64,000 nucleotides of DNA, from NCBI GenBank assembly GCA_040954595.2, contig CM082592.2:9845677-9909676 (forward strand), read 5' to 3'. Source of the stretch: Balanoglossus misakiensis (lineage: Eukaryota > Animalia > Hemichordata). The position numbers were made by a program, and so were the translations under genes. Position 1 is the first letter of the stretch. Each line of letters opens with the position of its first letter. Below, piece after piece: positions 10,986 through 50,200 of the stretch. Below the pieces are notes generated by a model. It did not search any database, had not been told where the DNA came from, and saw only the letters and a list, made by a program, of their open reading frames with translations.

Positions 10986-11316
10986 GAAGTATGCCCCATG
11001 TTTTCCCAATAAAAGAGGATTTTATTACTTCATATTACAGTTTACACAATTCAATCGAAAAGGGATTATGGCGTTATTACGTATACTAGTATGTCATCGA
11101 GAATGACTGCTTAACACGGTGCCATGTTTGACCATCTCCGACAAGAAACAGTCTCATCGACAAAGCGGCGTGTTTTGTTTTCTACGGACATGCTGTAACG
11201 GGGGAATTTCGGCTGCCGTCACGTCACGACATTAGGACAGAAAACAGCGACCACAGAGGGAAGTACTGATGACGTAACTCGCCGATATAGTGGGCTAAAT
11301 ACTCGTCGCCGTCGTC

Positions 11317-25507: not shown

Positions 25508-28500
25508 ATGTCGTCCCAGCTGGAATGGCTCGACGCAGTCCTTGGAAGATGGGGAGTAGAAAAGTTAGCGGCCGTTCTACTCGTTGTGGCGGGAGGTATT
25601 TACATGGGCAAGACAGCTTCCAACCGGAGGAAAAAGATGCTGATGCTTCGCGATGAGGCGCTCGACAGACGACAAAATGCAGCGGACATGAAAATCGCAT
25701 TGACTGAAAAGTTGCACACGGAAGATCCGGTAATATATTGTCCGTTGATTTCCATGCACATTGATCAAGTAATATGTTACGCACTATTGCCAAAATAAGC
25801 ATTAAACATTTATATCCATACATTGTTTTAATTGTGTATTGTGTGCAATTGACCACTGATGAGTCATGCATGGTCTGTGTTGTGTGTTTCATGTTGTAAT
25901 CGACAAAAGATAAGCGAAATCAATATGTGCGACACTATCATACTATACTTGTCTGATTTTTTCTTGCTAGAGAATATAGTGTAACTGTAGTTATTATAAT
26001 GTGTAGTATTTGGTCACAGGATGGTCATGCAGGTTTTGTTTACATCCCGGGGTGTACCTTTAACACATTGAAAAAGGAACCCATTTATTTAAAACACCTT
26101 TACTATTGCATCATTTATGAGAAAAATATGTAAATTAGATATGAATATCGATTTTGCTTGAACATTCATTGTGGCTCCAAATGATTTTATTGATTAATAT
26201 GTATGATTAAAAGTTTCATATTTGCCCATTTACCCCTTCTGTCTAAGGGACTGGTCAGTTTCTTCGGGGGGGGGGGGGGGGGGGGTATTCTATTTTGAGA
26301 GTGACCCCCCCCCCAATAATTATACTTATCTAGAACTTAAGCAAACAAAAGTTTACCTTAGATATTAGATATGCTAATTAGTCAGTGGATGAAATTTCAC
26401 TGAATTTTTGGGGTCTGTGTTATTTTTCAGGTTATACTAACGTCACGGCGGAAGATCATTGCCATGACAACCAGTGAACTCAGTGCAGCTTTGAAATCAG
26501 GTGAACTGACAGCTGTGCAGGTACTTCATGCTTATCAGGCAAAGGTGAGTTACCGGGTAATATTCGGAGGGATACTGGCAGCGCATATAATGTATCGAGG
26601 ATGACAATTGTGACACCTGCATTAAAACTGCAATGCATTGTGGAATAGGAAATTGAAGCATTTAGACCTGGATATTGGGATTTACATTAAATGGCACATT
26701 TTTGTCACCCCAGGCACTGGATTGTACAAGCCAGGTAAACTGTGTCACTGAGCCAATCATGGAAGCGGAGGTAAGGGTCATGAACTCTGTCAGGCTGTAC
26801 AGTACAAACGGCCATATTTAACCTCTGACCCAGTTAACGTTAGACTGGCCTGGTTGTAACAGTAGCTGTATGGAGAGTAAAGCCAACGAAAACAATATAG
26901 CAATTTCTCTAAGTGACTAACCTATCATGTTGCATGCTGTGTAGGAAATCTAGCCAGTCAGCTGCATATTGGTGGAGATCGTATTTTATCTAAAACAAAC
27001 AGAGATTGCATTCACACATTCCCCAAAACAATGAAGTACTGAATATGAAAGTTCCTTAAAATGATATTCTGTTGGAATTGGACTTTTGATAAATTGACAG
27101 GAATGGGCTGAAGAGTTGGACAGATGTTCGGAGAAGAGGGGTCTGATGCATGGGATTCCTTTCAGTGTCAAAGAAAGTCTAAACATCACAGTAAGTGAGA
27201 GACAATTTAGTTTGATGCGTCACAGTTTGTGACCAGAACCGATACACAATGCACGGTTTCTTGTAAGCTTCTTACAAGTTTCTTATAAGTTTCTTACAAG
27301 TTTCTTACAAGTTAAGTTAGTTGCAAACATCAATATATCTGCAGGGTTTCACCAGTTTGGTATTTTTACATTTATAAATCCATGTTTGAATTTCACCCAG
27401 GGGTATGATTGTAACTTTGGCATATCAAAGTATATTGATAAAGTGGTTGAAGAAGACCATGTTATTGTGCAGGTCTTGAAAAAGCAAGGTGGTGTTCCAT
27501 TCATGAGGACAAATCTGCCCCAAACTATGATGAGGTAAGCAGAAAATTTGTATTTTCAGTGTGTGTTTCATCAAGGTGAACAAACACTATAAATATTTCA
27601 AACGAATTCGTGTTTTGTTTGTGCTAGGGAGATATTCATTGAAGTTTGCTAGAACTTTGAATTTACCATTCATATTGTATTAAATCTGTCTTTTTCATTA
27701 CATTTTATAGTTACTCGTGCAGCAATCCTATTTATGGAGAAACTTACAATCCGTACGACTGTGAAAGATCTCCAGGGGGCTCTTCCGGAGGGGAGGGTGC
27801 TCTGATTGGAATGCATGGATCTCTGATCGGATTTGGTTCCGACATCGCTGGCAGTGTTCGCATACCGGCTCATTTCTGTGGGATCTGTTCACTGAAACCC
27901 ACCAAGGGTAGGGTTAGGTAGGTCTCGTAGGAGAATCAGCATTAATTTTGCTGCATTAATAATATTCCATTGAAATCTAGAAATCTTATTAATTGATCCA
28001 TTCATGGTGGATGAAATTATTTATTACCAGTACTCTCACATTTATTTTTTGTACAGTGGCAAAGGTGAACCAAATGTCATAGCTGGACAAAAAGGATGTG
28101 AGTAATCAAATTAAGTCACTATTAAAATTGTGTTGATTAACAGACACAAGAGGCCACTATACTTCAATAAGGGGGCCATTTGTAATAGCGACAAAAGCTT
28201 ACACTTTGAAAATTTCTCAACTGAGAGAACTATTTTTTTACAGTGGCTTCGGTGAATGGAGTGATGGCCCGTGATGTGGATGGAATTGTCTTGGCCATGA
28301 GAACTTTACTCCAGCCAGAAATGTTCAAACTGGATTGTACATTGGCGCCCATACCCTTCAATGAAGAGGTAAAAAAATCACATCAAGATACAGTGTTATT
28401 TGAATTTTCTATCTCCCAACATAAAACTGGGGATTAAACTTTTCTTTCTGTTTTTCCAGGTTTATTCCAGTGGCCACTCTCTCACTGTCGGTTATTATGA

Positions 28501-30122
28501 AGATGACGGTTTCTTTACTCCAGTGCCAGCTTGCAAGCGTGCGGTTGCCATGACAATAGAGGGTTTGAAGAGGGCAGGACACAAGGTAGGGCAGTGGAGA
28601 TAAAAATACATTTAGTAGTAGAGACCTTCAAAAAGCATTTAGATGTGTTTAAATGTTTTTTGTTGTTTTTTTATCAGGTGATACCATTTAACGTACCCCC
28701 TCTCACTAATGAAGGAGACACAGCTGGTGACCATGTATTCAGGTTACTGCATGCGGATGGAAACAAGCTATGGCTTTCACACTTGTAAGTGGAGTCCCTG
28801 TCTCAATGTATAGATCTGCTTTAGATGAACAAAATGTTTTCTGTGGTATGATGGATCTATTAATATAAAGGGGTGTTGATACACAATTAGTGACAGTTGT
28901 CTGTCTTATATATGATTATGTCGTTTCAGAGAAGGAGAGCAAGTTGATAAACACTTAGCAACTCAGATTTCCCACACTATAGCGCCGTCATGGAAACGAT
29001 GGTTAAAGTGGCCATTTATGGTGAGTTTCAGTGGCTCTTATCACCCTCACAGGAGATGCCTACCTTGAGCTTTCAGTTACACTGAATTGTATGCGTAATT
29101 TGCAGTTTAATTTTTAGTCAGCGAAAACATGCAGGGATGAAGGGATATTGAAAGTAATTAGTCATTAATTAGGTTTTTTTTTCCATCAGTCAAATCGAGA
29201 GAAGATGGGATTCCGTTCCTGTGGAGGCGGTGATAAAAGAACGTCGGAATTATTTGCGGATTACAATAAGAGCAATGTGAGTTGCATTCTATGGAAAATT
29301 TAACACCTACAACAAATATACATATGAAGCTCTCTGATTTGGATATTGTTTCGAGCATGATCTGAAATCACTGATTTATTACACAAATTTTATGATCGCA
29401 CACTTACACTTTTCTATTATTTTCACTTTCAGCAATACGCTGCAAAGTTCATCTCTGCCTGGATGGAGGCTGGCATTGATGTCCTGGTGTGTCCTGCCTT
29501 TGGTATCACAGCATGTACCAATGAATACGCTGCCAAACTTTTCCGTAAGTCTGTTGCATAGAGTCAAAGATTTTGCAGAAAAAATACAAAACTCCCTTTG
29601 CTAAAATAATCTGACTATTGCTGAAGCATAGTTACATTCTCATCAATCTTTTATTCTTTCTGTCTGTTTTTTTCAGTCTTAGCTGGTACAACTGCCATCT
29701 ACAACTTGTTAGATTTTCCAGCTGGCACTGTAAATGTAACCAAGGTAACCAAAGAAGATGAGGAGAATCTGCTGCATAATTTTGAAGTGAATGACAAATG
29801 GGACCAGATGGCGAAAGAGGTAAATGAAATAAAAATCAGGTTCAGGGAGAAAAATAACCTGTGAAGTTTGATTACATTTATGCATAATCATTGCAAAAGG
29901 ATGGAAAAAACACACAAACTGTCTCAGAACTTTCAAATAAATTCATTACTTTCCAAATAATAATTTAGTGTCTTAGGATTAAAAATGACCATATTGATTT
30001 TCCCACAGGCCAGTAAAGACTCTGTTGGACTTCCTGTTGGGGTGCAGTGTGTAGCGTTACCATGGCAGGAAGAGATGTGTCTCCGATTGATGACAGAAGT
30101 TGAGAAATCCATCAAACTTTGA
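25508..30122 (+). CDS. FAAH: Fatty-acid amide hydrolase 1-like / vitamin D3 hydroxylase-associated-like amidase, copy 1 (15 exons, 589 aa)
   Basis: Exons: 25508-25729, 26431-26544, 26714-26770, 27101-27190, 27401-27534, 27711-27917, 28057-28097, 28244-28368, 28460-28585, 28678-28784, 28930-29020, 29190-29276, 29433-29544, 29677-29819, 30009-30122 (1770 nt, GT-AG, open frame). N-terminal TM anchor, catalytic Lys in HGIPFSVKE, amidase signature [39 protein letters not shown] and [22 protein letters not shown]. Confidence 0.93.
26244..26314. repeat. G20 and C10 homopolymer tract in FAAH copy 1 intron 1 (possible MITE remnant)
   Basis: taagggactggtcagtttcttc + G20 (26266-26285) ... C10 (26305-26314). 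Not seen in the copy 2 intron. Confidence 0.45.
27256..27313. repeat. 11-bp minisatellite (GTTTCTTACAA) x5
   Basis: Five adjacent units, two exact and three with 1-2 mismatches, in FAAH copy 1 intron 4. Confidence 0.8.
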
Positions 30123-30541
30123 GACGAAACATCAAATGAAGAAAACCAGTGAAAATGATCATGAAAAGTAATTTCTTTTTGGATGCTGATTTGAAGAAAT
30201 ATTGTGTATCATGATTCATGGAACACTGCATGATGTGTGCTATAATTGTTGGGCCTATTTTTTCAGGTGACTCTAATATTTTCCATGAAAATTTATCAAA
30301 GGTGCAGCTTTATTTTTATTTGTTGTTCAACAAGTCATCATACCTTATGGTTTCTATTGTAAGGTTGTGTATCTCTTGCTGGAGGACTTTAACTGATCTT
30401 AAATGTATGGAAAGATTTTTTTGAAATGATGAAAAGTTAAAAGAATACTTTGTTTTATGTCCTTTTGAAGTGCACTTTGTTCTCCTAGTGGTTGAAGTTG
30501 TTGTTATTGTTGTTATCTTCAGATTTATATACATGTTCCAG

Positions 30542-30547
30542 AATAAA
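30542..30547 (+). terminator. Probable polyadenylation signal of FAAH copy 1
   Basis: AATAAA ~420 nt after the stop, at the end of a U-rich 3'UTR-like stretch. Confidence 0.45.
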
Positions 30548-31002
30548 AGATAAACATTTTATTAAACAGTTTGCAATTTAAGTGATGTATTTTACAAAAG
30601 AAAATAAAAATAGCAGCAATGTTGAAATGAACATGGTATGTGTCTGATATTATTTGATATTATTCTTACCTATAAATAAACATAAAATAATTATAATTAT
30701 GCATGTCCATCAATACCCATATGTACTAGTCCACAGAATTTATTACTGTTGGTCTGTTTTAAACTGACAGAAAATTATGAATAGGGTTATTTAGCCAAAA
30801 AACTGCCCAGAGTTTTCTTTGACTTCAAGTGTCTGTCAACAAAATAAAGGCCAAGAGAGGGGCAGTGGTTAAAATTCTACTCTAGTGCAGGGTACATGAC
30901 CTGACTGACATATGACCTTATTGTAGTACATCTCGTCTGTACTCAATAAGGCGTCTGTGCTATAACTCTCTCCAAGGCCAGAACCGAGTTTTTCCTGTGA
31001 AA

Positions 31003-34000
31003 ATGGCGTTCAAACTGGAACGGCTTGATGCAGTTCTTGGAGAATGGGGACTAGAAAAGTTAGCAGCCACTCTGGTCGTTATGGCAGGAGGTATTTACAC
31101 GGGCAAAGTACTTTGCGACCGGTGGAAAAAGATGCTGAGGATTCGAGATCAGGCAATCGATAGACGACAAAAGGCAACTGACATGAAAATCGCACTGGCC
31201 AAGAAGTTGCACACAGATGATCCGGTAATATTCTACAATACACAAATTCAACTGAGTGATTCTATGGACTTAAACATTGAAAGCCCTATTCACTTTATAT
31301 GTTGACATATCAGTGTTCAATCACCATGCAAGAACTAGGACTAATAGTATGACCTGTATCCCTGGATTTCAAGGGCAAATTGACCTCTGTACGACATAAA
31401 TAAGAACTGCACACAAATACGTAGAACATTACAAACTCAGTAAATGTTTGTCCATAAAAAGTACTTTTTGTGGTCCCAAAAGGATAGATTTCTCATGTAT
31501 CCTTTCTCGCTAGAAAGTTCATTAAAAGTAGTGCTTATGGTGAAAATTACTGATTGTAATTTTCAGGCTGTTCTAGCATCACGACAGAAGATCGTTGCCA
31601 TGCCAACCAGTGAACTCAGTGCAGCTTTGAAATCGGGTGAACTGACAGCTGTGGAGGTACTTCACGCTTATCAGGCAAAGGTGAGTAGATCTTGATAAGG
31701 TGGAGGGAGATTATGTTGGGAATAAGTCACAAATGTGCATTCTGCCTTTGAGAATATTCTGTATTGGCCATTTTGAGAGTAGTTTTGAAATATGTGTCAA
31801 TTTAGTTCCACCACAACTTGGACACAGCACAACAGCTCCACCCATCTGCAGCAGTCAAAACTTAATTTACAAGCAACCTATTAAAGTTAAAGTGGCAAGT
31901 TTTTTATACCACACCATCTCAACAATAGTTTAATCCATTCTCTTTTAACCACCACAGTGTGTCGATAACAATATCATACTTTATTTCCCCCACCCCAGGC
32001 TATGGATTGTACAAGTCAGATAAACTGTGTAACCGAGCCGATCATGGAAGCAGAGGTAGGGGTCATGAACCCATTCAAGTTGTTCTACTTGTGGTACATT
32101 AAACTGTCTGCACTTCCAAAGGCCAGTTAACACCGGACCCAGTTAGTTAAGTTTTGTAGCAGTATGAAAGAAACCATGATCTTTGGATTATACTTACAAA
32201 TGACTGTAGCCGGCCAACAGGGTTTATGCACTGCAACCATGCAGTAGTTATTGGCACATTCCTCAAAACAAGATATTGATGAATATGAACATGATTGAAA
32301 TATTTAGACTTTGATGGTTGATAAATTGACAGAAATGGGCTGAAGAGTTGGACAGATGTACAGAGAAGACAGGCCTAATGCATGGAATTCCTTTCAGTGT
32401 CAAAGAAAGTTTTAATGTCAGAGTAAGTAAAATTAAAGTTAGTTTGAAAGAGTTTTTTTCCTTCAAAATTTTGATGTGGTTTTACATAGGGCATGCAAGC
32501 CGCATTTGAATTGTTGGTTTCACTCAAGACTGCCTGTAGGTAAATTTGACCCAAAAAATGGTTTTGCACGTAACTGTGCTTGAATTTTCCAACAGGGGCG
32601 TGACAGCAACGTTGGTTTAGTGAAGTACATCAACACGATAGCTGAAAGAGACCATGTTGTTATACAGGCACTGAAGAAACAAGGTGGCATACCCTTCATG
32701 AGAACAAACGTGCCACAGTCAATGCTGAGGTAAGCGCGTTCTAATGCAGTGGATGGCACTTAGACCACTGACAAGTGTTACGTTTCACCACTCTTTTGCT
32801 ACTTGCAACTCACAGCTGCCACTTGTATCATGTGTTTTTCGTACCCCTAAGAGTAAAGATATTAAGTGAAATTCATTTATATACATTGATGATGCAGATC
32901 AACACTTTTTTAGCAAACAATTATTTTTGACATATATAGTTACTCGTGCAGCAATCCCATTTATGGAGAAACTTACAATCCGCACGACCCTGAAAGAGGA
33001 CCAGGGGGCTCTTCCAGTGGGGAGGGTGCTCTGATTGGAATGCATGGATCTCTGATTGGACTTGGTGGGGATTTGGCTGGAAGTGTTCGCATACCAGCTC
33101 ATTTCTGTGGGATCTGTTCTCTGAAACCCACCATGCGTCGGATCAGGTAGGTTTCCTGTAGCTGAAAACACTCCAGTGATTTGTATAACGGAAAGTTTGT
33201 AACCATTGAGCTTCCCCCTAAAACTAAGTCAGATTTATCAGTCTATCATTAATTTTTGACACAAAATTAATGACTGCATTTATATCATACATATTCTTCA
33301 AAAAGGTCCTGGAATGCCCTAGAACTTTGAGTATGACTACGAAAGTATGAACTTAAGAGGGATTTGTGCCTCTTGTAAATGCTGACACTGCCATTTTTTT
33401 ATAATTTTAATTTCCACAGTCTAATAGGAGAGGCCATGCCCTTGTCGGGATATAAAGGATGTGAGTATCATAAGATGTGGTTTCTACTTGATATAATGTT
33501 TTACTTGGTAATTACCTCATTGTTCACCAAAACCTTAAATTTCTGGTTCTTAAATTTAAATTTGATTTTAATTTCCCTGTTAGTGACTTTTTCACCTGGT
33601 GTGATGGCCCGTGATGTGGATGGTGTTGTTCTGGGCATAAAGGCGCTACTTCAACCAGAAATGTTTAATCTAGACTGTACAATTCCTCCTATACCATTCA
33701 ATGAAAAGGTAAAACATCAATATGTTTCTATTGGCACAAACAAACTTGATGTTGTATTTAAAGACACAGAAAAGAGCAATTGCAACAAAAAGTATTTGTA
33801 CCAAAACAATAAAATGTCTTGATTTAATAATTTGAAATCTTTTACAGGTTTATTCCAGTGGCAACTCTCTCACCATCGGTTATTACGAAGATGACGGTTT
33901 CTTTACTCCAGTGCCAGCTTGCAAGCGTGCGGTTGCCATGACAATAGAGGGTTTGAAGAGGGCAGGACACAAGGTATGGTACTTGAAATGTTATATTTCT

Positions 34001-35900
34001 ATGTAGCCAGTGGAATTAACAACAAATACAGTGGAAATCTTGTTTTGCTTATTATAACCTTCTTGTAGCTTCATACACCAACTGTTTTTCTCACATATAA
34101 TTAAATGGGTTTCACTGTATTGAGTTTGGTTCTTTAATTTTCAGGTGGTACCATTTAAAGTTCCAATTCTCGATGAAACAAAGGGAGATACAGCTGGTGA
34201 CCATGCACTCAAGTTAGTGCATATGGATGGAAATAAACAATGGTTTTCTGTTTTGTAAGTAAAAAATCTTCTGGTGCCATTATTCTCCACATGGGCATCA
34301 GAATTTTCTCTTTTTGCTCAGAGATAATTGCACATACATTTACATGAACCCAATCAAACACCAGGTGCTAATATATATGATTATACGGTATGTTTTTAAT
34401 GTTTCAGGGGGGAAGAAATCGTTGACAAACACCTTGCGAATCAGATGTCTGAAACTGTGGCACCGTCATTGAAACGATTGCTAACATTGCCATTTATGGT
34501 AAGTTTGGGAAACTTTTTGCTCAAGGATAGTCCAGTGTTTTAATGCTGGATACCGTTATAATGCGTCAACTTCTTTCTTCCATTTATTTTTCTTTCTTTA
34601 TTGAGAACAAGTGAGGCAACAATTGTAATTGCCATTTGATGTCATTGTGTTCAACAGTCTCGCCGAGTGAAGATGCATGATCAGTTGTTTAGAGGTGGTG
34701 ATAAGCGGACATCTGAATTATTCGCAGAGTACAACGAATGCAATGTAAGTTTCCTTTTCATGTTTCACTGACAGTTTATACATGTAATGTTTGTTTGGAA
34801 GTGATATCCTGTCCATCTATCCTGTCCATTGTGTGAGCAGGTGACTGTGCTTATTTTTCAGCAAGCTAGGACAGATCATTTGAGTGTTGATTTTCAATGC
34901 GATACAAAACGTGGCCATCTTGTACTGCTTGAAAATTGAAAATTGCAGATGGAAAGTTGGCAGACGAGACATTCTCGTACCATGCCTGTATCAGACCTGG
35001 GATCAGTTAAATTATGTTTAACTTGAATTTCACTGACCTACCTGATGTGAAATTTTTCCTGAGCGGTTTCACCCTTGATCATAGATGTACATCCCCCATT
35101 GATTTCACTTTCAGCAATACACTGCAAAGTTTATCTCTGCTTGGATGGAGGCTGGCATTGATGTCCTGGTGTGTCCTGCCTTTGGTATCACAGCCTGTAC
35201 CAATGAATACGCTGCCAAACTTTTCTGTGAGTCTGTCGTAATCTCATTTTCTTGTAACTGAAATATTAATTATTGATTGGCCAAATTAATTTCACAATTA
35301 CTGCAGGATAGGTCACTGCAAACATGTTAAAAAACCTGCAACATCCCTCTCACTATACCAGGACAATTGAAAGATAATTTGGGACAGAAGGACATTGATT
35401 CATGACCAGAAAAATAGTAAGTCAGATGTTAGCGTTACAATGATAATGTATTCTTTCATAATAGTTCCTTTCAATCTTATTTGTTTTCAGCTTTGTTAGG
35501 TACAACAGGCATATATAACTTGTTAGACTTTCCAGCCGGCATTGTGACTGTTACCAAGGTAACAAGAGAAGATGAGGAAAACCTGGAGCACAACTTTGAA
35601 GTAAAAGACCAAATTGACCAGATAGCAAAGGAGGTAAGCAAAATTGTAACATTTTCTATAAAAAAAACTTTGGATGATTTTGTTTACTGAATTGGCGTTG
35701 AACTACCACACTTCCATATTTATACACTATAGATTTTTTATTCTAGATCCGAAAAATAATCACCTGTAATCTTTCCTACTCCACAGGCATGTAAAGACTC
35801 TGTTGGACTTCCTGTTGGGGTGCAGTGTGTAGCGTTACCATGGCAGGAAGAGAGGTGCCTCCGATTGATGACAGAAGTCGAGAAGTCTGTCAAACCCTGA
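31003..35900 (+). CDS. FAAH: Fatty-acid amide hydrolase 1-like amidase, copy 2 (tandem duplicate, 15 exons, 590 aa)
   Basis: Exons: 31003-31224, 31567-31680, 31999-32055, 32333-32422, 32596-32729, 32940-33146, 33420-33460, 33584-33708, 33848-33973, 34145-34254, 34408-34498, 34658-34744, 35115-35226, 35491-35633, 35787-35900 (1773 nt). Exon sizes match copy 1 except exon 10 (+3 nt). Triad motifs [21 protein letters not shown] and GLGGDLAGSVRIP are intact. Confidence 0.93.
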
Positions 35901-37064
35901 GATATATAGAATGAAACAATAATTCAATGAAAACTGTCTGAATCATGAAAGTTTACTTTGTATTGGTGACAAGCTGTAGAAATGAATAAGGTTTCTGATG
36001 GGAATTCATCAAAGCTTATCTATTCATTTGCAAGGCAATAACTAACCATGCATATTGACGTCTACATCCCCCGAGGTTTTGTAAGAGGGACTTTCATTAA
36101 CCAGTGTTACTTCATGATGATTAAAGATTTTAATTTTAGAGTAAACATTCAATTATTAACATTTGTTCAATTTAATATGTGGTTTTTTCTTTTATGTCAG
36201 CAAGGAATAACCAAGACACGCACCATGAACATCATTATACCATTTTATTTCATTTTACATCAAACAATTATGTGTATTATACAGAGGCGTGTGAGCCATA
36301 AAACTCTAAAAAATAAAATTCCATTTTTACAATTGGAACACTATATAAATCAACCACTTTTACATATTAGTGCATACTGGACTTTAAATAACTACCAGAA
36401 ACACTACTCAGAGTATTTTTTTGTGAAACTGAATTCAAACAAAGACAAAAACTTATATAGTATATAATTCATTTGAAAATTGTGCGCCTCTGCTATTACG
36501 ATTGTAATTACCGTACATCCCAAAGATCACAGCCCCCACACATGCCTAACAGGACAGTGAAAAGATTAACATACATGTATTTGAAATGTAAATAAAATAA
36601 CAGTAGCAAGTATTAATCTCCCAGATAATAATCTTAGTAATACCAATTTGTGAGGCTATGCCATTTATTTATCCTGCTGTCTGCTAATAAATTACATGCT
36701 AAGTATTCTGCTATATGTCCATTCTAACTGACAAGCATCTACGCCCTGTCGAGTAAACTTGAGAAGTCATATGCCAATCTTGATGTCCAAGGGAATATAT
36801 GCTACATGTAGAGTGAGGTAAGCCATTTTGAATTTGAAATTTTAGATTGCAGATACAATTGTCCTGCAGTCCCTGAGCAGTGACAGTTGACTAAGTAACT
36901 CATGAACTGAGATAAAGAGAATATAGAGAAGCATTTTCTTGAACACACATCAGCATATGTTCCTCAAGACCACCGTGATAAAATGAGTTTCATTGCACCA
37001 ATAATATTGTGGTTGGTTTAGAAAACAGCAGACATTTAAAAAAAATTCAGTGATGTGAAAGCCC

Positions 37065-39685
37065 TCAGTAGTAGATGTTGTCAGCCAGATGCATTCCTTG
37101 GACTGCTTTGCTGAGCTCTTCTTCAATTTTGTAGTGGTCCAGACTCATCTCGACGAACCTACTCACAGAGTGCTTCTGGAACTCTTGACTCCACTTGACG
37201 TCATTGTGAACTTCCAGTAGTGCCTTCTGGATTGCCTCTTTCTCAGCCTCTGAAATAGTGGAAGAGTGGGAGAAAAAGTTGAAGTGAGTCTGCTTTTTGC
37301 AGGATATCATTTCATTATTAGAGACAATTTCACAAATTCCATTCATACTCATTAATTTGTGCCCATGGGACTCTGGTCCCTCTGACAGGACTCTGATTGG
37401 AAAGTGCACCCTCTACATTTTGTTTCTTTCGCAATGGCAAAGAACTTAGTAAAAACAAAAGCAACTCTTGCAATCCACCTCAAGAGGGCAGCACTCACCT
37501 GGAATTCTGGAATTGACAGCTATGGGATAAATGGGCAGCGGCCCAATTGAAGTCAATATGTGTAAATTCTTGGCTACCTCAGGGTCTTTCATTTGAACTG
37601 CTAAACAGTTGCTGTCAATGCTGGCTGCTTCCACTGTTTGGTCCAGGACCAGCTTGATAGAGTTTAAATGTGATCCTGGAACAGCAAAATATTAAAAGTA
37701 AAAATCAACAAATCCAGACAAAACCATACAAGAAGTGTAACAATAATGCTGACACGACCGATCAAATTCAACATTGACTTGTATGATTTCTTGCATGAAT
37801 AACACCCGAGTAAAAATACTCAACAATTCAATGGAAATACAAATGCACAAAGTTAACGATTGATCTCAAACAAGAAAATTTATACACAAACTTACCAGAG
37901 TGCATGATATGGCCAAAGAAACTTGAATTTTCACCCATTTGCTTCAACATCCTCAGTGTAGAATAACAGCCACTGAGAGAATGGGCATCATTGTACGCCC
38001 ACTTGCAACCCCGGAGGTTGATGAACTCTTTAAAACGCTCTCTGTAGACAGATGGAAGAAGAAGAAAAACAAGATAAACGTTACTGGATGATGTTGCTTA
38101 TCCCTGACTGTTTGCCATGGCAACCACTGAGAGGAAGTATCTGATAAGGATTTTCTCATTGATAAGAGATTTGATCGAACAGATTTCTCGGAAATGTTAT
38201 TCAGTGTGTGATGTGTATGTGCATGTGTGATGTAATCTGGTATTTGTGATTGCAATGTGTCTGAAAAGTGTTTTTCAAGGCAACAGTCAACCCAGTGGTT
38301 ACACAATGTGAATTTGAGGTAATAAATGTCTATTTTCCAGGCATAATCATGTACTAAACATCAGACTGTCTTTCATATTGGGAACTGTTTGAAAAAAGAA
38401 TTTCAAAGAGTATGAACAATTGGTTGGTGAATTCTGTATAATACTGGCGGGATAGGAGTTTCTGTGGGCAATTTCCTTTTTCCACAATGCTATATCCGAA
38501 GCTGGGTAAGCTTTATAAAACTGGCAAATCACAACTTACTTGTTGTCAGCATGAATTATGACATCAGAGAAATAGACTGGTCTATTTTGTGCCCTTGGGT
38601 GCATGTACACTGGTCCAGCTTTGAGCAATTCTACCGGTGCCTTCTTGTCTCGTATCAAATTCATAAATGCTGAACTGCACATGAAACCTAAAAGAACCAA
38701 CAAATGTATTGTATGAATGCAAAGCCATAGAGAAACAATTGCAGAAATGTTTTACAATTACACATTCAAAGGAAGTGAAAATAATGAACTTTTTTAATGT
38801 TCTGTTATATCCACATTTCACATGCTGCTCTGAAACCAACACTTGTAGATACGGCGTTCCCTCCAAAAGGGAAAAAATCCCAAGAATGTGATACCAAAAA
38901 TTTATTGATTTATTGATTCATTCATCAATAATTGATGAGGGCAGCTCATGATCATGTCTTAAGACTTGAGTTTTAAATTACAAAAATAAATTAAAGGGTA
39001 TATAGATCACTAAAATCAATAAAACCAATTTGACCTAATTATCACCTATGTGAATAGGGCTTGGTATGCTCTTGAGCATTAGTACATAAAATCACCAAGC
39101 GTACTCGATCAAATTTTAACAATTCATGCTGATTTCTTGCATCAAATTCAAAACAAATTCTCTGTTTCAGAAAGGTACAGCGACTTGATATTTGCATTAA
39201 TTAAGTTTGACTAACGCACACTGTCGCCGGCAAAAATAAATTTGCTATACAACTGGTGGTGTTCAGTGAAAGTGGGTAATTGGGTCAAACTGAGGTTTAT
39301 TGATCTCAGTAATCTAGTTTACCTACTCACAGCTGCCTTTCTGGCTACCCAAATGCAAGTCACTGCGCAGGTATTGTGAAAGGTGTATAACTGATGCAAG
39401 AGCTAATACACACATTGTGCACATTGGCAAATAAATCAATTTCAAGAAATTAACATTATAGGAAATTCCATCATAATCACCTATGTCAACATCGTCGTGT
39501 GTGAAAGGGTCGATTCTCTCTGGTGGTGGGCCAGACCATCGGTTTTCATAGATCAAATGCGCATCCTTGTTCAACTTCTCTTCCAGGTAATACATCACAG
39601 TCTGGAAGAACTCAATCGGAATACTGGGAGCCAGGTAGGTGATGCATCGAAGTCTCCCACTCCGTCTTGCGTCTGTGTCATTCAT
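37065..39685 (-). CDS. PhnD-like phosphate/phosphonate-binding protein (type 2 periplasmic-binding fold), spliced, 5 coding exons, 286 aa
   Basis: Exons (minus): 39685-39481, 38687-38540, 38041-37896, 37675-37499, 37249-37065 (861 nt, GT-AG, phases 1,2,1,1). Translation has motifs typical of bacterial PhnD-family proteins: LRCITYLAPS, VDIGFMCS, PVYFSDVII, LRGCKWAYNDAHSLSG, FFGHIMHSGSHLNSI, VEAASIDS, SIGPLPIYPIAV. A probable upstream non-coding exon has donor AAG|GTAAGT at 40696/40695. Confidence 0.85.
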
Positions 39686-40695
39686 TGTGTTCTGTGGCTG
39701 TATTAAATAAAAAGAAGATAATTTATAAATGGCTGCAGAGATGACGCATGGCTGGGTTTCTGTGGTCCAGTGGACCCAAAGCAAAGTTTTGATAATTCAT
39801 GGCTTCTACAGATTCTCAGTACATCAGACCTACAAGCAGATGGTTTTTGTGCTGCCGGACACGGACAGTCACAGACGTGTTGGCAGTGTCCATCTGATAA
39901 CACTATCTCCAATAAGTCTGACATCACTGCCAACATGTTTCTTTCTCATGAAGTGAACGGGAGGTTAGTCACGTATCTTCCACATGGTCTGTCAGACTGT
40001 GTATATGTCATCTGGGGAGCTATTCACAGTTTCGCCCGACCCTGCCCTTTGCAGTCGCCAAACTGATATGAATCTACGTCTCATCACAAATCATCGGATC
40101 TACCTGCAACACGTGGCATTTCTTTCTCAGCAGTCATACTGTTGGGGTAAACAACCTTTTCATGCTTGTAGGGCAGTGTGCCCTCTAACAGACATCAATT
40201 TGATGATTTCTAAAAATTGCATTCATGCACAGATCTACGAAAGATGTAGTCTCTGCAGTGTGGAGAAATTATTTACTGACAGGTCTGAGTGTATAATGAA
40301 TTTTTGATGAAATACATTCTCATGAAATGGACATTAAAATGGTGTCTATCCACATACATGTACATAATAGTTGCAGTATGGCCCTATATGCGCACCTGCT
40401 GTAGTGAGATGCAGATACATGTATAAATGGTATACATGTACATATCTCTCTGTATGTCCATGATTATACTGAAATGTACACGTGTCTGTAGGTGGGTCAC
40501 CACTTAATGCTGCCCCAGATACACCAGGTCGGCGACCTGACATTTGCTGTCGTGTTTCACTGCAGAATCTCTCCACACTACAGAGTCTAGGAAAAAAAAT
40601 TGTCTGGGTCTCGCTTGGCAAGTTCAACTTTGCAACGTCACAAAGGATGCCCTTTTCGGGTCATTGTGCTGGCAAATAAGTGAACTTGAACTTAC

Positions 40696-41267
40696 CTTTC
40701 AGTTCCGACGATCGTCGCGCAGAATAATGGGTAGAGCCAAATCTGATGATGCTCGATCCACGCCGTCCGCTGATGTTTAACCCTCTTGGTGACGTAACGG
40801 ACACCTGATCCAGCTGCTGATCACAGAGTGATCGGTGACCGACAGTTGCACTTACTCGATCGTTGACCCTAACCGAGGTGAACATCCGGGGATTCGTGTC
40901 AGTTTAACTCCTTAGCAGCAGCCTTCCATCAATCAGCTCATTCGCGTTTGATGGGAGCACAGAAGAGTGTTTCATTAATTTTTGCACTGTGTAATTCAAG
41001 ATCATTATATATGGATGAATGTATTGAGATTTACGATGGCTGTAGACTTTTTTGTGACAGGGTAACCAAAGCAGCCATATTATAAATATTGGCAATTCAG
41101 GGCGTTCTTCATTACCAGGAAATCAATCTCAACGTACAGACACACAACCAGTGTTTATATCCCGTGTGAAATGGACAATTCTGTGATGTGACGATCGTGT
41201 TGATAATCAAGCTTCCGCGATGATCTCCTAAGGTTGAGCGTCGAGGACTGGTCAGAAGTTACAAGGA
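40696..41267. promoter_or_regulatory. CpG-rich shared promoter region of the PhnD-like gene (-) and SH2B (+)
   Basis: Local CpG enrichment ~40690-40900, a perfect minus-strand donor at 40695, and the SH2B ATG at 41268. TSS positions are not determinable. Confidence 0.55.
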
Positions 41268-44200
41268 ATGGAGAACGGTGGAGTCGGGAGCGGAGAAATA
41301 ATTCCGACGGGAATGGACTGGGCAGAGTTTTGCGAAAATCACGCCCATATCGCTGCGGCAGAGTTTGCCAGACACTTCCGCCACTACATCACAGAGAATC
41401 CACAGTACGAGGAATCGGACGCTAGCAGTAAGTTTGCCCGCAGATACGTGGAACACTTCTTGGATCACTTCGAAGTCGAAGTGCATAAGGGCTTTAACAC
41501 CACTGGGGACACAAGAGGGGCCCATTTGAACGGCCGAAAGCTTGCCAGCGATCTGGACCTAAACAATGCACACTTAAAAGACGTAGTCTCAAATAATCAA
41601 TCAGAGCATAGCTTACATTCCAAAGTGGATAAGGCGAAACCCCCAATGTCTTCCAAACTCGGGAAAAAACTGTCTTTTAGAAATATGAGAGAGACTGTCA
41701 GGGCGAAATTTCGGAGGCAGACTGCGGAAGACAGTGGGCATGCAAAATTACGACCGAAACACGATATTTTGAAAGAAGGAATTGTTAATCAACTTATTGG
41801 AGAAGATGTGAATGGGAGGAACAAGTGGGAAAAAAGTCGACTGATTCTTGTCAAGACAGATGGAGGTCACATGTTGGAGTTCTATAGTCCTCCTAAGGTG
41901 AGTCATTGCTCTTTCTTTTGCTAAAAAAAGTTTTGTGTGTGTGTGTGTGGTGATACCATTCCAAATAAGTTTAAAATCAAATGGATCGTTTTTCTTATCA
42001 GATAAATCAATGGAAAAATAGTTTCGGTGGATTAAAATTTCCCCAGAAACGACAAACATGTCGAAAGGCGATGAAAAAGAACACAAAACAACTCAGGGTT
42101 AAATGTTTTTTTTCTGACAGTTCTCTATTTTGCCTGGTTCACTGACAGACCTTTGATTTGTGTGTTTAACAGTTTATTAATTGCCAGTCACAATAAATAT
42201 CTACTTGAAACTTAATGCAGTAAAGTTAATAAAAGTTAAAAAGAAATCTGGTATATCAAATGTTATTTCACGTAAGTGATACTGATACCCTTTAATGTTG
42301 GGAAAAGAATGAAATATCAGTATCATAAAAGTTAAAATACATTAATATGTAAATTAGAGGCTAGTGTTGCTTTGCCAACCGTACCACCCATATTTCTTCA
42401 TAGTCCAGACTTGTTGAACATGATGTTTACATGTATTAGAGAAGACTTGTTTAGACTGCAGAAAGTGCCTGGTGGGGTAAATTCTTTAGGAAGATAGCAT
42501 GGTTAGTGTTCAGTGGGTGTTTATAATTTTGTTCCAGTTTAAACAGTGCAACTGTGGCTCTTATTATAGATATACAGCATCTGTGGAACTGATGAATGTC
42601 AACTACTAATTACACCCCTTCCAATTACAATACCTGTCCTGACGACAAATTAATTTTCTTATCAATTTTGAATGAAATTGACATTGATTGATGTTACAGG
42701 AACAGCTGCATTGATGCATGGTTGCACGGCTCATAGTAAAGTGCTAAATGTTTAAATGTTAAGGGTTGCCAATTAATTAATCATCTATTTGACAAGTGTT
42801 GCTGTATTTCAAGGATAAATGCAATTTGTGAAAGCACTTCCTGTCCTTGGACCATGTGACATTGACACTGCCATGGAGACAGTTACCATATTGACTCTAT
42901 AGCACATGTGGTTCCAGTTTCACTTTTCCATGTTGGCTGTTTTTCCCATGCCTATATTGTACTTCTGTATTTGTTGAACGTTTCAGTGTTGTTCACACAG
43001 AGCTTACAAAAAAAAAAAACGATTTATCATCTTAATCCTGCGATTACTAATTGTCTGTTTCCTACCCACACACACGTACACCTATTAAATCTGGTACCAC
43101 GTATGGTATACCTTGTAATGTCTATCATTCATTTATTGTTTATTTCAACCACCACAGTCTTGTTATTGTTCAGAGATATGATTGGATCCAAATTATGAGA
43201 TGACTGATTTATATCCTGAAATTAGGATAAATGTTTTTAAATTAAACGAGAGAAGCGTAGAAAAAAGTGAAAGCGCCCCCCTCCCCCATCACAACAACCC
43301 ACTCATTTTCAATGATGTGACAGCTACTTCCTATCTTAGATGGATTACATTTCCTACATCCTGTAATATATTAAAATCCCATCGCTCATGTAAGACAATT
43401 TCCAATTTACTTTTAATTCAAGATACAAAGGGGAAAAGTAAACATGACGTCACGTTTTTAATCAATTGATATCTAATGTCCATTGTCATCACACTCCTAA
43501 TATTCCATCAACTCCAGGTGTACTGAAGTTTACAAATGACAGGTTAGATGTTGCCATAGAAACATCTCTAGAGAACTGGAGATTTAATTCCAACTCTGCA
43601 ACCCCAAGTGCTTTCACTCACCCTGGTTATTTTTCACCATTTTTTATCAGAATTTAATCAGAGCAGCTGCTTCTTTTGACAGACATGACGAATGAGACGC
43701 GTCTTCAAATTTACCCATCCATACTGTTAAATTAATTTCCGCTTTCAGTTTTCGCCGGTGAATTTTACAGTCAGACTTGTCTCTTAGAAACAAGAATTAG
43801 TGTTAAACAGGACTTTGAAAAAAGCAGCCACTTGATTGGTCCTTGTCCAATTGTCTAACTACACGTACCTTCATATACTCGTACATGTTGGTATAGTTTC
43901 TATAACAGTATCATATATCAATGATTCAGTTTTACTGTGAGAAAATAATTTGTAGTTGTTTGGAAATAAATTAATTCAACATCATACATGAAATATTTAA
44001 GGATCAAATGACCAGTAATAGAAACCATTATGATCCTGATATACATGTACCACGTTTTTGTTACCTCTGACCTTTGGCAAAGGTCACTTTATGATAAGAA
44101 TTTCTGACCTGTTGTATGGCTATGGCTCTCAGTGAAAATCTCCCTGAAAATTCAATTTGTCAGTATGCACTGAAATGTACTTTTGGGAGGCCAATGAACT

Positions 44201-47200
44201 GTTTTGAATTGTTGAACAGAAAAACAGAACACTCCAAAGCTGTATTTGAATAATAGAAATTCAAAATGGTTTATAGTCTAGACAGGGTAAGTTTACCAGA
44301 TGGCGTTACTATAATACTTGAATAACAACGTGTCCTGCATCTTAATTATATTTTGTTTATAAAATATTCAACTATGATAGACTGAATTCCTGTGTGTCTT
44401 TGCATTCATATTGTTACACTATAGCTTCTATTCATATTTTATTATGCATACAATATGTATATTATTTGCCTGGATCCATTTAAAAATATGTTTAGAAATC
44501 TTTACTGTGTGCCATAGATGATATTGTCAAATGATAGGTTTGTACATGGTCAAAAACAGGGATGAAAATACTTGTTTTTACATATTTCTGTCAATGTTCC
44601 CAGTCATGTCATATTTCACAAACAACTGATTTTCATCGTAAGCATTCAACAACAAGGGAAACAGAATAACAGAAAAACACTTTTTTTACGTCCGTGGTTC
44701 AGTGTGACGTCATGCGCCAGTGAAGACGAAGGACAAAATATTGAAGATATGAGGGAAAACAATCATTCTTCTTTCACAACCTCTTCCAAGGATATCTTTT
44801 GGAGTGATCAGTTTTGCAAGGTACCCTCTTTCAGAGAGGATTTTATCAAGTCTTTTAAGAACATCGTCAATAACACAGTGTACTTGGGTGTAGCCTAGTA
44901 CATAATCTGCCCTGTCTTGGCTCTGCTAAACTATTTGACAGAGCCAAGAAAAGGTGAACTAACTTGGATTTTCAAGTTACAAACTACCTTTATACCGTGT
45001 GGATATGCCTATGGGTGGTCTTGTTACACTACTGTGTATATACAGTGCAGCAAGGCGTACAACAGCCCCAGGGCAGTGTTACTGTTGCAATAAAAGGACG
45101 TATAATGTGAATCAATGGATGGGGTGAAGGTGAAGCTGCATTCAAAAGATAATTTGTAAAACCATTGCATGACGATGAATATGATGACCCAAGGGGTCTA
45201 AATCTACGTATTCGCATAAAGTGCTGACGCATCTAACCCTCGTTAGATCACCATAAACCCGTTTGCAGGCTATAAAACTTCATGCGTCTCACAAAGAATT
45301 GTATACTTTATGAACTCTTTTCATGCCGAGACTGTCAGATTTCTTGTTAAATTTATGAAGGAAAAAATACATGCGACTTGGTTACTGGTTTGTTTCAGAT
45401 ATGACCTAGACGTAGAAGCAGTCAATGTACAAAGTATAATTAGAATGGAGATATTATTTACATGTTCACCTCATTGGGCTTTAAGTATGGTTGAATGCAT
45501 CACCTAATTGGAATTTGTTTTTCATGACTTGTGCACTGAAAAAAATTTATCTACACCCCACCATAATCGTGACAAATTGAATAGAGGACAGGTTCATTTT
45601 TCAATTTTGGAGCGATCAATGAAAATCATGTGAATATTTCTAAGAATTACAACGAATTATGTTCCCTTTCAGGAGCAATATTTTGTGAATCAGAATTGAT
45701 TGGGATTTGTTTGTCTGCTGGGCTTTGCAGCATTCTGACCTTTAGACCTGCATTCATTGATACGTGGTTGGCAATTTCCTGGTTTGAGACAAAAAGTTGA
45801 AAACCTCTTTGGTATTGTTCATTGTAAATATGTTGGACCTATTATCAATACACTTTGCAAATGCTGGGTTGGCGCACAAAAATTCTGAGCATTCAACATG
45901 CTTTCGGGATTAGATCAAGAAATTCTGGTCAATTTACAAGACAAGTATGTAACAAAAATCAAACAACATGAGAGAAATGCTGGTTAGTGAGCACTATAAT
46001 CATGAGTGAACAGCATTGGAAGGTCTGTGAGTGTTATAGATTAAACTCTGCAAAACGAAATCAATATTCTCATGACATAGTAGCTTTACATTAGCTATGT
46101 CTCTCTGTCATAATTATTTGATATTCTCAATGTATACTGGAAATCATTGATTGACATGAAGTGCTACTTTCAGAATATTACAGGTGCCTTGATATGTAAA
46201 TTCATTGGAGACAATAGCTGTAAATTTGCCTATCCAGGGTCCTATTTAAATAACAAAAGGAAATGTCGGCATTAAAAAATTGCACTCAGGAAGGGGTTTC
46301 GTAAGGTCAAAATGGTATGAATCATGGCCTATGCGTATCATGTACAATACAAGCACAAAAACAATTTCACAAGAAAATTTTGAAATGTATGGTAAGTTGA
46401 CATTGTGATATATGAATCATGTTTTTGAAATGAACATACACCTGCATTGGTGTACTGTAGGACAATAAATTACACGTTTTTCCTGATTGAAAGTTAAACA
46501 GGATGGCTTTTGAAGAGAGGAAATGGCTGAGTGACAGTTGCTAAGGAGCAAAGGCCAATATCCATGACGATTGACGCCAGGGCAGATATTCTTGTATTTA
46601 AAATTCATAGACCCCAGTGTGTGTTCCATTCTCGATGTGCTGTTTTGATGTAATTGTTACTTATATGTGAGCTGTAAATTGGGAAAATTGCGCGAAAATG
46701 AGTAAAAAAACAGCATCAGCTGTGCTGGTCTTTTAAAAATTTGCATCACAACAAGAGATAATGAGAAAAAAGCTCTAAAGTAGTCTCTTAGCAGATCAGA
46801 TTGGCAGAGGCCAATCCAAGATGCATCTACGAAAACAAGACATTTATTTTACTTCTGTGCAGTCACAGAGATAAATCATGCCTGCAGGCCAAGTCAGCTT
46901 GTTTGCTTCTCTTAATCGTGTAAGTTGTTTGCCATTTCAGAGAGCGTTTAAGATGTAGAGTCTGTTCTCGAGACGCTTCCTGCCACGTCTCCTGAATCAG
47001 TACAAATCATCTCGTCAGCCGTGCCATCATCATCAATTCTGACACAGTGCCATCGATGCACCCGTGTCTAGACTGAAAGCATAATCACTGATGAAGAAAG
47101 GGCACTTCAGGGCATGATGTAATGCAAAGCTTACGGAAAAATAAAAATAGAATATTGTTTTTATAGTTCCTTTTCTATAACAGTTGCACCATTATTGTAC

Positions 47201-50200
47201 TTTCATTAACCACCATATACACGTTAGAAAGAAAATATAATTTTTAAAACAAAATTAAATGGCGTATTTTGGCAACAGCTTTATGAATAAATTGATAATA
47301 AATTGACAACAATGTGCAAAATTTAACAGATAAGAGCTCAGGGTGACAGAATTAATGTCACCTCAAATGTTCCCTGTGTCTGCCAAGTCCCATGAATCAA
47401 CTGCATCTGCATATCACATGAATAGCACAGGAGGTGTTTTCAGACCTTCTAGTAAAACCGTCAGCTTAGCAGCATTAAAACGCAGCCATGCTAAATTACG
47501 GCTACAAAGAATATAGCCTGTCACCCCTTTTCATGTATGCGAGTCACGTCGCAGTCTCTCCCCGCTCTTGTTGGCCTGTTTACACAGATGAAGCCTTTAT
47601 TGCTTTGACATTTAGGTGCCTTTTGGGTGAATCTCATCCATAGATCACACCTAAATGATAACACCATTACATGTTTTTTACGCTCATCAGCAAACTCTGC
47701 CAGTTTTGCCACAAGATTTGACTGTCTCAAGCAAATGCCGAGTTTATTTTACATTTCGTGGAGTGGAGTCAAGGACTAAGGCTCTTTATTATAGAAGCTG
47801 ACGCACAACAAACATTATTCCATTGTTTAGGGGGAGGGTTATGAGCTCATTTATTTTGTGCATACGTCAAATGATGGAAATACTAGTTTGTTCCATCAGT
47901 CAGTTCATCCCAACGAAGTATAGCTAACTTCACAGATGAGTTAAAATTGCAATGTTTACTGATAGTACGTACACAGCTCACCCATGTGGGCTTATCTGCC
48001 CCCACAAGCATCCCTGACGTCAGAGCTGCTTGCTGTTCAGACCAGAGTGTGTCCATTTCAAGGTCACTTCTTCTGTTTCCCTCTGTGTCACAGATTTAAC
48101 ACTTCCTCAGTGAAGATGTCAGCGCTATAGTCGTAAATCAGCTGACAGCAAGCACTGTTTGATGCTCAAGGATTTACAAGTGCCTCTTGCCCATACAAAG
48201 CCTGACATCTCCAAAAAACAAATACAATACACTTAGATTTTTTGAAGGTTAAGAATGACACTTTTTGTTGCTAGTTATTTTTTATTGTAAAAAGTCACCA
48301 GATCCTGTTTATGTATACTAGTGCGTCAGTCATAAAAGAGGAGTTTCAGAATACATGTATACTGTAAAGGGTTTCATGTTATTTATATCTCATAAACATG
48401 AAGCCTAATATTTGGCCTCCATGTGGTCCCTTTAATTGGTCTATCTTGTCTTGTTTTGCTATCCTATCCCTTGGTCTATCTTGTCTTGTTTTGCTATCCT
48501 ATCCCTTGGTCTATCTTGTCTTGTTTTGCTATCCTATCCCTTGGTCTATCTTGTCTTGTTTTGCTATCCTATCCCTTGGTCTATCTTGTCTTGTTTTGCT
48601 ATCCTATCCCTTGGTCTATCTTGTCTTGTTTTGCTATCCTATCCCTTGGTCTATCTTGTCTTGTTTTGCTATCCTATCCCTATCTTAAAATGAACCATAT
48701 TTGCATCTTTGTTTACCACACAAGAGGATTGTTAAAAACTGAATGGGTGTTTTGCTCATGACTTGCTCGTAGAAGTCCATGAACCAATATCGTGACCTTG
48801 GCCACATCTACTCAAGTTGCTGCGACCCGATCATGACCATGATCACATATGTAGGTGTTGATACTGCGACCCTTTGATGATCTAAACTTGACCTTCACAG
48901 ATGACTTTTTCACCAGGAGATTTGCCAAGAATCGATTGTTATTTTAATGTGTGTGAACTGATGTGTATATCATTATTTTGGGGTTTTTTTCTTCGTTCTG
49001 TCAGGCACACAAGCCCAAAAATGGGATATTTTGTTTCCTGATAAAGGAGGCCAGAGAAACTACTGCTTTAGAGCTGCCTGATACAGAGAATACATTTGTA
49101 CTGAAGGTAGGATTTTTTATACATTTGAAATGCAGAATTCTGGGTTTTCTCAATGTAGAATTATATCTTGTCTAAAGAACATTCATAGTCTTCATCCCTA
49201 ACCCCTACCGGCAGTTGTGTGCCCGAACTAAAACAAGCTGGGTGAAGCTAGCCAGCAGGAATGTTATTTCAACAAGAATGTCACACTTGAAAACAGAGGC
49301 AGACTCGTGTTCATAACATTTATATCCTATGTAAACATCTTGATTTGTTTATCGACAGACGGAGAACAAAATGGAATATGTAATAGAAGCAACCAATGTA
49401 CCAGAAATGAGGGTTTGGTTGAACATGATTAAAGACTCCATCAAGAAGGATTATGAAAACAATCAGCTCAATCGAAGGTATGTCAAAACTCTCTCTCCCT
49501 TCCCCCACTCTCCCTAGTCAATATTACACCTGCTCTCTGATTGGTCGAGAACATTTCCAGTATGAAACATACACCCCAGTTGATCCAGTTTCATTTATTG
49601 ACCTATCTATTTATCAGACAATATTTTGGAACATACATCAAAGTCTCTTTCATAATTTTACAGCACGTGATTTTCCACACGTGCTAAAAAACAGGGGTGA
49701 CTGGCCGCTGCGACATGGATATTGTAACTTTATACAAATCTTTATCTCAAGTATGCCTAAGTGTAAACGTGTAAATCTTGGCAGTGTTTTGAGTTTCATG
49801 AAAACCTTGTTGATGCTGGCAGACACTCCAGACATTCAAGCACTTTTCAGACCTAATCCCCTCTGCATCTTGTGTTAACATCAAAGAAGGGGAAACCTTT
49901 TGACTTTGAGTGAATTAGGTCAATTGCCATGAGCAACGTAAGCAGATAGCCAGCTTGTTGATTCAATAAGCATGATGTCCCCCATGTGTTAAACATTGAA
50001 GTTTGTTGTTGAGATATGACTGTCTCTCTCAGGGACGTGTTGCAGAAAAATACGAGTGACCTTATTACCATATTTTGTTCGAGCTTGCATTGAATCATTC
50101 TGAAAAGGGAAATTTGTGTTCACTATCTTGTTTAAGAAACCATTCTTTTCAATGAATTTGACATTAGTAAATGGGAGAGCTCACCCTCTAAAAGTCAAAG

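Follow-up and report, generated by a model that had tools for sequence, protein, structure and literature searches.

How does an animal come to carry, amid ordinary animal genes, a gene whose nearest solved relatives are bacterial substrate-binding proteins, and what might its product do there? The question is raised by a gene on the minus strand of a 64,000-nucleotide stretch of the genome of the hemichordate Balanoglossus misakiensis (the window, meaning the whole stretch analyzed; positions are counted from its first letter). Five coding exons of this gene are joined via four GT-AG introns into a single open frame of 286 amino acids (aa), the same protein that an initial annotation, made from the sequence without database searches, had assembled. 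The fold of this protein is known, whereas its predicted compartment, the cytosol, and its kingdom are new. The animal proteins form one clade with a common fold, a conserved pocket, shared intron positions, no leader peptide and a conserved tail. We give an even chance to the proposal that they act as cytosolic dimeric clamps that would close on a small oxyanion, probably phosphate from day to day, and relay this closure via the tail, as a sensor or a carrier. The parts of the gene to which the argument refers are the following:

39481..39685, minus strand: coding exon 1, aa 1-68; without a signal peptide, with the predicted dimer strand (aa 43-48) and a family-specific Gly-Pro-Pro loop
38540..38687, minus strand: coding exon 2, aa 69-118; Cys72 (at the position of AioX Cys106), His98 (animal-specific) and Tyr107 (pocket)
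37896..38041, minus strand: coding exon 3, with pocket residues Ser139 and Ser141; as long (146 nt) as its counterpart in animal locus L113 and flanked by introns of the same phases
37499..37675, minus strand: coding exon 4; His169 and Asp187 (pocket), Tyr216 (aligned to the PtxB cap residue Tyr208)
37065..37249, minus strand: coding exon 5 with the stop codon; terminal, animal-only Tyr-Tyr at 37073-37068
39686..39720, minus strand: candidate splice acceptor (pyrimidine tract and AG), immediately 5' of the ATG
36664..36669, minus strand: candidate polyadenylation signal about 400 nt past the stop codon, the sole match in 36401-37065

The introns measure 793, 498, 220 and 249 nt and have phases 1, 2, 1 and 1. 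Ten combinations of splice sites were open in the ranges tried, and the 286-aa version aligns end to end with a protein of Ptychodera flava at 75% identity. The candidate acceptor, seen in the sequence only, suggests a further intron in the 5' untranslated region that is absent from the initial annotation. The GC content at third codon positions is 0.52 in the coding sequence, as against 0.50-0.63 for three exon frames of the adjoining SH2B-type gene. The flanking genes are those of an animal, namely two amidase (FAAH-like) genes and the SH2B-type gene with its Phe_ZIP and SH2 domains. Contamination, already thought unlikely in the initial annotation on the strength of the neighbors, is ruled out by these together with the introns and the orthologues in other animals.

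The fold was analyzed on models of the Ptychodera orthologue rather than of the window protein itself, with predicted local distance difference test (pLDDT) values of 92.6 and, using a broader alignment, 93.7. Structural alignment placed AioX first (Z 26.4, root-mean-square deviation 3.5, 257 residues aligned), tied with ArrX (Z 25.9), and ahead of PhnD (24.6; range for PhnD and PtxB 24.1-24.6). The eight top matches were AioX, ArrX, PhnD, PtxB, HtxB and their kin, at Z 21-26. Foldseek likewise ranked ArrX and AioX as the nearest solved proteins, and a sequence profile recovered ArrX at E 2.7e-27 and AioX at 1.7e-16, with PhnD and PtxB at 4e-12 or weaker. Affinity with transferrins was rejected: transferrin itself reached only Z 16.2, and no transferrin Pfam model matched five animal orthologues at E 0.01. 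Those five all exceed the cut-off of the Pfam Phosphonate-bd family (PF12974; 27 bits), with 92.8 bits for orthologue P0026 and 91.7-119.7 bits for the other four. Taken singly, two of the five window exons, 3 and 4, match this model (E 0.012 and 7.4e-6), both below 27 bits, with exon 4 at 25.9 bits.

The initial annotation had read the protein as a domesticated PhnD-type phosphonate-binding subunit, which would serve to take up or handle 2-aminoethylphosphonate. Aminoethylphosphonate lipids are made by many invertebrates, and PF12974 membership and the oxygen-binding residues held in common with PhnD also speak for this reading. We nevertheless consider it very improbable. Against the NCBIfam models P0026 reaches 66.7 for PhnD (TIGR03431; cut-off 261), 74.6 for the wider subfamily (TIGR01098; 112) and 32.8 for the selenate-binding family (TIGR04553; 250), and two other animal proteins likewise fall under the cut-offs. 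The protein has no leader, and no permease or ATPase gene lies adjacent to the studied gene within the window. Even among 80 genomic loci of bacterial relatives a permease adjoins only 11, all of one lineage, in an operon that has its own exported binding protein. Further, the acidic residues with which E. coli PhnD binds the amine, Glu177 and Asp205, correspond to Asn189 and Tyr216 of the window protein (mapping from the available parts of PMC5908839 and PMC5700983), and in PtxB the equivalent cap, Tyr208, bars bulky groups (PMC5700983, available part). The designation as an importer subunit of PhnD/PtxB type is not supported, while that as a member of the broader Pfam family stands.

To trace the family among animals, exon 1 was used as a query that led to a clam protein, which was in turn used as a query (best 120 of 123 matches); animal profiles were also searched (best 120 of 324 matches; at E 0.001, best 150 of 6,373 representatives), and 30 clusters were identified by look-up. 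Among the matches listed, orthologues are found in Ptychodera, Glandiceps, four echinoderm genera including starfish, Branchiostoma, Lingula, Tubulanus, many molluscs, two annelids, insects, arachnids, crustaceans and one tardigrade. Similar genes do occur in marine invertebrates, as the initial annotation had suggested, but insects, spiders, a scorpion and freshwater molluscs carry the gene too. The matches listed include no name of a vertebrate, a tunicate, a fly, a nematode, a cnidarian, a sponge or a eukaryote other than an animal, which does not prove absence. Glandiceps has two copies on one scaffold (P0301 and P0308), the second without the Tyr-Tyr tail and the tyrosine cap. Intron-free copies occur on contigs of 1-2 kb and in locus L111, the latter with one frameshift; they are probably mRNAs of other animals. 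Some animal proteins bear automatic database labels such as 'probable PtxB'. An account of the animal family was not found in the literature searched, although subscription papers and unexamined supplements could list the gene as transferred; the hemichordate genome paper (PMC4729200; available portions of the text and two supplementary files) and the accessible text of a thrips paper (PMC7570057) make no mention of it. The suspicion that this is a widespread and apparently unstudied family rather than a lineage-specific one is hence borne out from hemichordates to arthropods and tardigrades.

The age and source of the gene were addressed with a quick IQ-TREE phylogeny of 69 rows, 24 of them animal, and a careful one of 33 rows, 8 of them animal, under LG+G4. 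The animal rows form one clade in both, with a Shimodaira-Hasegawa-like approximate likelihood ratio of 100 in the former and support of 100/100 in the latter, and its topology in the quick tree roughly follows animal phylogeny. This clade lies inside a group with leaderless bacterial proteins (support 99 and 100/99, respectively), and the neighbors of this group as a whole in the 69-row tree are again leaderless proteins of bacterial look. Comparison of intron positions, which the initial annotation had proposed as a check, points to considerable age: L113, an animal genomic fragment with best matches to mollusc-type proteins (58-65%), shares introns 2, 3 and 4 in position and phase and has a 146-nt exon of identical length. 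If L113 is correctly assigned to a lophotrochozoan, mollusc-like animal, these introns were present before the protostome-deuterostome split. The best reading, which we hold to be very probable, is that the gene came from bacteria, on the bilaterian stem or earlier. Horizontal transfer and ancient retention had initially been left side by side; bacterial acquisition is the better supported of the two, though the tree does not settle the choice. The approximately unbiased test does not reject a tree in which the 19 bacterial-type rows are held together (p-AU 0.20), and bacteria are monophyletic in 10% of bootstraps, so that the animals are possibly sister to the bacterial subfamily rather than nested in it.

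Such a placement, along with four near relatives whose source organism is unassigned (P0139, P0154, P0184 and P0221), would suit inheritance from an early eukaryote followed by losses, or arrival via a virus or an unsampled microbial eukaryote. Whatever the function, we regard this origin as quite unlikely, given that neither the matches listed nor the 30 clusters looked up include a name from cnidarians, sponges, fungi, plants or protists, that the group is embedded among further leaderless, bacterial-looking proteins, and that a protein atlas shows a single eukaryote-only cluster among bacterial ones. Scans of viral contigs yielded no locus, one scan counting one related stretch, and a viral structure library held only clamp folds at 7-14% identity. 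Three leaderless relatives (P0154, P0221 and P0389) are of unusual composition, one of them lying on a 341-kb contig labelled as seawater metagenome; a giant-virus source for these three is possible.

The transfer from bacteria would have brought in a protein that had already left the export route. The first strand of the animal protein starts at residue 12, leaving no signal peptide, and a simple hydropathy screen (not SignalP) detected a leader in one of 101 scorable animal rows and none of 203 bacterial rows, as against all three exported controls; the near relative P0139 does carry one. As the nearest bacterial relatives are also leaderless, the shift to the cytosol probably occurred in bacteria. 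These relatives constitute a subfamily of PF12974 with members in Rubrobacteraceae, Planctomycetota, Acidobacteriota and Rokubacteria (alignment A2), whose gene is rare (three of 200 sampled planctomycetes). They resemble the window protein in identity of up to 44%, absence of a leader, the Gly-Pro-Pro loop and the pocket core; they differ from the animal proteins in a cysteine conserved in 98%, a glutamine cap, the lack of a Tyr-Tyr tail and less conserved dimer-strand residues.

Conservation in the pocket was counted over 110 animal and 284 bacterial rows, grouped by a FastTree of 439 of the 450 aligned rows; six loci were represented by a neighboring exported protein, and those rows lie outside the counted groups. 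AioX binds its ligand through seven residues, Tyr88, Cys106, Tyr131, Ser161, Ser163, His192 and Asp210 (PMC5908839, available part), of which the window protein has six, as Cys72, Tyr107, Ser139, Ser141, His169 and Asp187. The last five form a core, which 90 of the 110 animal rows and 267 of the 284 bacterial ones have in full, the median column conservation in animals being 0.51. Tyr216, in the cap position, is a tyrosine in 78 of 110 animals; the cap is a glutamine in 279 of the 284 bacterial relatives, so the animal tyrosine is probably convergent with that of PtxB. That AioX and ArrX are the closest solved proteins in both sequence and structure, and that the AioX-specific cysteine and aspartate are both present in the window protein, might suggest an arsenic binder or sensor that buffers cytosolic arsenite or arsenate. 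We judge this distinctly improbable: identity to AioX and ArrX is only 20-22%, the cysteine is gone from all 18 named arthropods tabulated, and the bacterial neighbors scanned (clustered and adjacent open reading frames only) included no gene of arsenic metabolism.

What the bacterial neighbors do offer is a link to selenium and sulfur, in the best 80 of 420 genome matches and 28 bacterial metagenome loci. Genes for egtB/senA, senB, selD, a Sec-type LysR or SBP56 lie within 4 kb in 20 of the 80 genome loci and nine of the 28 metagenome loci, representing about three lineages. A selenium island in Rubrobacteraceae (L004, L005, L017, L018, L020 and L054) comprises LysR, a phnD-C-E-like transporter, the leaderless gene, senA, senB and selD, the last three exceeding their cut-offs. 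SBP56 comes next after the leaderless gene in L008 and L030. A three-gene operon of Sec-type LysR, the leaderless gene and egtB recurs in L052 (5024-7468), L096, L105, L106, L108 and L110; the open reading frames scanned beside it include no egtD. In a second planctomycete clade, too, the gene adjoins egtB. Several genomes with the three-gene operon carry a second SenA-like gene elsewhere. Other contexts that recur among the 80 genome loci place the gene with argS and a metallophosphoesterase (14 loci) or with a branched-chain dehydrogenase and hydroxyphenylacetate genes (eight loci). In the available part of PMC13674229 a putative selenate transporter is listed beside such enzymes, and the leaderless gene is not.

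These associations raise the prospect of a selenium or sulfur carrier, which would bind selenite, sulfite or selenophosphate (through Cys72 where present) and hand it to incorporating enzymes, as the bacterial relatives may do for SenA/SenB and EgtB. The cysteine conserved in nearly all those relatives fits this, as does the presence of selD in 46 of 48 carrier genomes. We nonetheless consider a carrier of this kind rather unlikely for the animal protein. Genomes sampled from these phyla as background carry selD in 383 of 503 cases to begin with (152/201, 121/151 and 110/151; 76%), and the naive Fisher p of 0.0008 ignores kinship; carrier G004 and five background genomes are unpublished, and no conclusion depends on them. 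Moreover, 60 of the 80 genome loci lack such a neighbor, EgtB is over its cut-off in only 20 of the 48 carriers, and the Sec-type cut-off was passed by only two of six LysR proteins in one scan and by none of three in others. Three lepidopterans retain the full pocket, yet Lepidoptera have lost selenoproteins (PMC4561486, available part). A scan for tRNA-Sec in 60 of the 80 loci found none. Separately, selD occurs in 73-80% of evenly sampled genomes of Planctomycetota, Acidobacteriota and Actinomycetota (G049-G544), many with an in-frame TGA. This frequency is above that for bacteria overall. The gene under study itself ends in TGA, as does L111, and we considered whether it might be a selenoprotein by C-terminal selenocysteine read-through; this was rejected, since the sequence downstream of the TGA differs between the two, no selenocysteine insertion sequence matched near the gene, and the family is kept in Lepidoptera.

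The orthologue model is also predicted to form a homodimer, with a score of 0.63 where the best control reached 0.02, runs agreeing in at least 86% of contacts and pLDDT of at least 85. The predicted interface comprises residues 11, 24-28, 41-48, 57, 60 and 65, strand 43-48 pairing with its own copy, and conservation at several of these residues is stronger in animals than in bacteria. In calibration this test passed 21 of 30 microbial homodimers and none of 23 monomers, and 17 of 29 eukaryotic homodimers (7 of 16 from animals) and none of 30 monomers. Outside this interface lies the C-terminal Tyr-Tyr, present in 101 of 110 animal rows, where it is among the most conserved columns, and not found among the ten commonest bacterial endings. 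The tail has a pLDDT below 50 in both monomer models, that from the broader alignment included, as would be expected of a docking motif. The ending may recall the proteasome-docking HbYX motif, but it is preceded by Arg in 14 and by Thr in 25 of the 101 rows.

Clamp folds can also be enzymes, as in Thi5, MqnA/MqnD and HisG. A leaderless, single-domain protein predicted to dimerize might accordingly be a cytosolic enzyme acting on a small phosphorylated or sulfur-oxygen substrate; its gene is co-oriented with egtB at a distance of 21-213 bp in 14 bacterial loci, His98, Glu35 and Arg57 are conserved specifically in animals, and Thi5 is among the fold matches, far down the list. We think catalysis improbable, as the conserved core is the non-catalytic oxygen-binding set of AioX and PtxB, animals freely have Ser, Thr, Glu or His in place of the best candidate nucleophile, Cys72, and the top structural matches are all binders.

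We thus favor the cytosolic clamp. A gene acquired from the leaderless bacterial subfamily of the PhnD/AioX fold before the protostome-deuterostome split would encode a protein that stays in the cytosol and pairs through strand 43-48. Each clamp would close on a small phosphate-like oxyanion, held by Tyr107, Ser139, Ser141, His169 and Asp187, over which the Tyr216 cap should leave little space for a bulky fourth group, and closure may be passed to a partner via the free Tyr-Tyr tail. Cytosolic phosphate is millimolar, and PtxB and ArrX, with the same kind of pocket, bind phosphate far below that level, which makes phosphate the likeliest everyday occupant; selenite, arsenate or arsenite, and phosphite are alternatives. 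The dissociation constants for phosphate are about 47 µM in PtxB and 150 µM in ArrX (PMC5908839 and PMC5700983, available parts).

Several observations weigh against this proposal. Identical pocket residues do not fix the ligand (PMC5908839, available part); the position of AioX Tyr88 is occupied by Trp50, a residue that just 55% of animals share; and only 28% of animals retain Cys72, as against 98% of the bacterial relatives. The bacterial neighbors point to sulfur and selenium chemistry, not phosphate. The dimer prediction may reflect memory, as the test passed only one of the seven eukaryotic dimers for which no older solved relative exists. The tree is compatible with a sister relation to the bacterial subfamily and points to no one donor. 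Finally, with no vertebrate, fly or nematode copy among the named matches, this is not a universal animal phosphate sensor. A bolder version, a cytosolic sensor of phosphate (or of a selenium oxyanion) in bilaterian invertebrates, obtained from bacteria before the split, reporting as a dimer through a Tyr-Tyr invented in animals and perhaps lost by vertebrates, flies and nematodes, we find doubtful.

Few bacterial genes are documented as retained from the base of Bilateria onward; this one, if so acquired, has lasted over that entire span in nine phyla, its pocket intact. In prokaryotes, proteins of the PhnD fold serve as exported subunits of importers and sensors, and a cytosolic animal version has had no described role; animal phosphate sensing and the handling of selenium and arsenic oxyanions by invertebrates are, in our assessment, open questions. 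As a small soluble protein of tractable animals (moths, cricket, oyster, amphioxus) it makes these directly testable. The leaderless bacterial subfamily, linked in several lineages to ergothioneine and selenoneine genes, is itself unstudied.

As to the surroundings of the gene, the tandem amidase pair (window 25433-36000, plus strand; first coding frames at about 25.5 and 31.0 kb) converges on it, and the SH2B-type adaptor gene (41238-53334, plus strand) diverges from it with about 1.5 kb between the coding starts, so that a common promoter is possible. Within the SH2B span, 48368-48761 holds tandem repeats, seen as repeating translations in three frames. Farther out lie a single-frame rhodopsin-family G-protein-coupled receptor (11299-12522, plus strand) and part of a protein kinase gene (61825-62328, minus strand).

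Among known systems the best matches in sequence and structure are the arsenic-oxyanion sensors ArrX of Chrysiogenes arsenatis (PDB: 6X6B, 6XL2) and AioX of Rhizobium NT-26 (PDB: 6ESV, 6EU7), which are used without an ABC transporter and with which the window protein shares the positions of Cys106, Tyr131, Ser161, Ser163, His192 and Asp210. It departs from them in the replacement of Tyr88, a Tyr at the position of Pro240, the lack of an export signal and of any adjoining sensor kinase or regulator gene (the neighbors being the amidase and SH2B genes), the extra Gly-Pro-Pro loop, the C-terminal Tyr-Tyr and the predicted homodimer. The phosphite-binding ABC subunits PtxB and cyanobacterial PhnD1 (PDB: 5JVB, 5LQ5) have the same fold, and Tyr100, Ser130, Ser132, His160 and the cap Tyr208 of PtxB correspond to Tyr107, Ser139, Ser141, His169 and Tyr216; here the differences are a Leu in place of Thr131, an identity of only 13-17% and the absence of a leader or permease. 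The 2-aminoethylphosphonate-binding PhnD of E. coli (TIGR03431) shares the PF12974 fold and the oxygen-binding residues, but the orthologue falls far short of its family cut-off, and the animal protein, judging from its sequence, lacks the acidic amine cap and is probably not exported.

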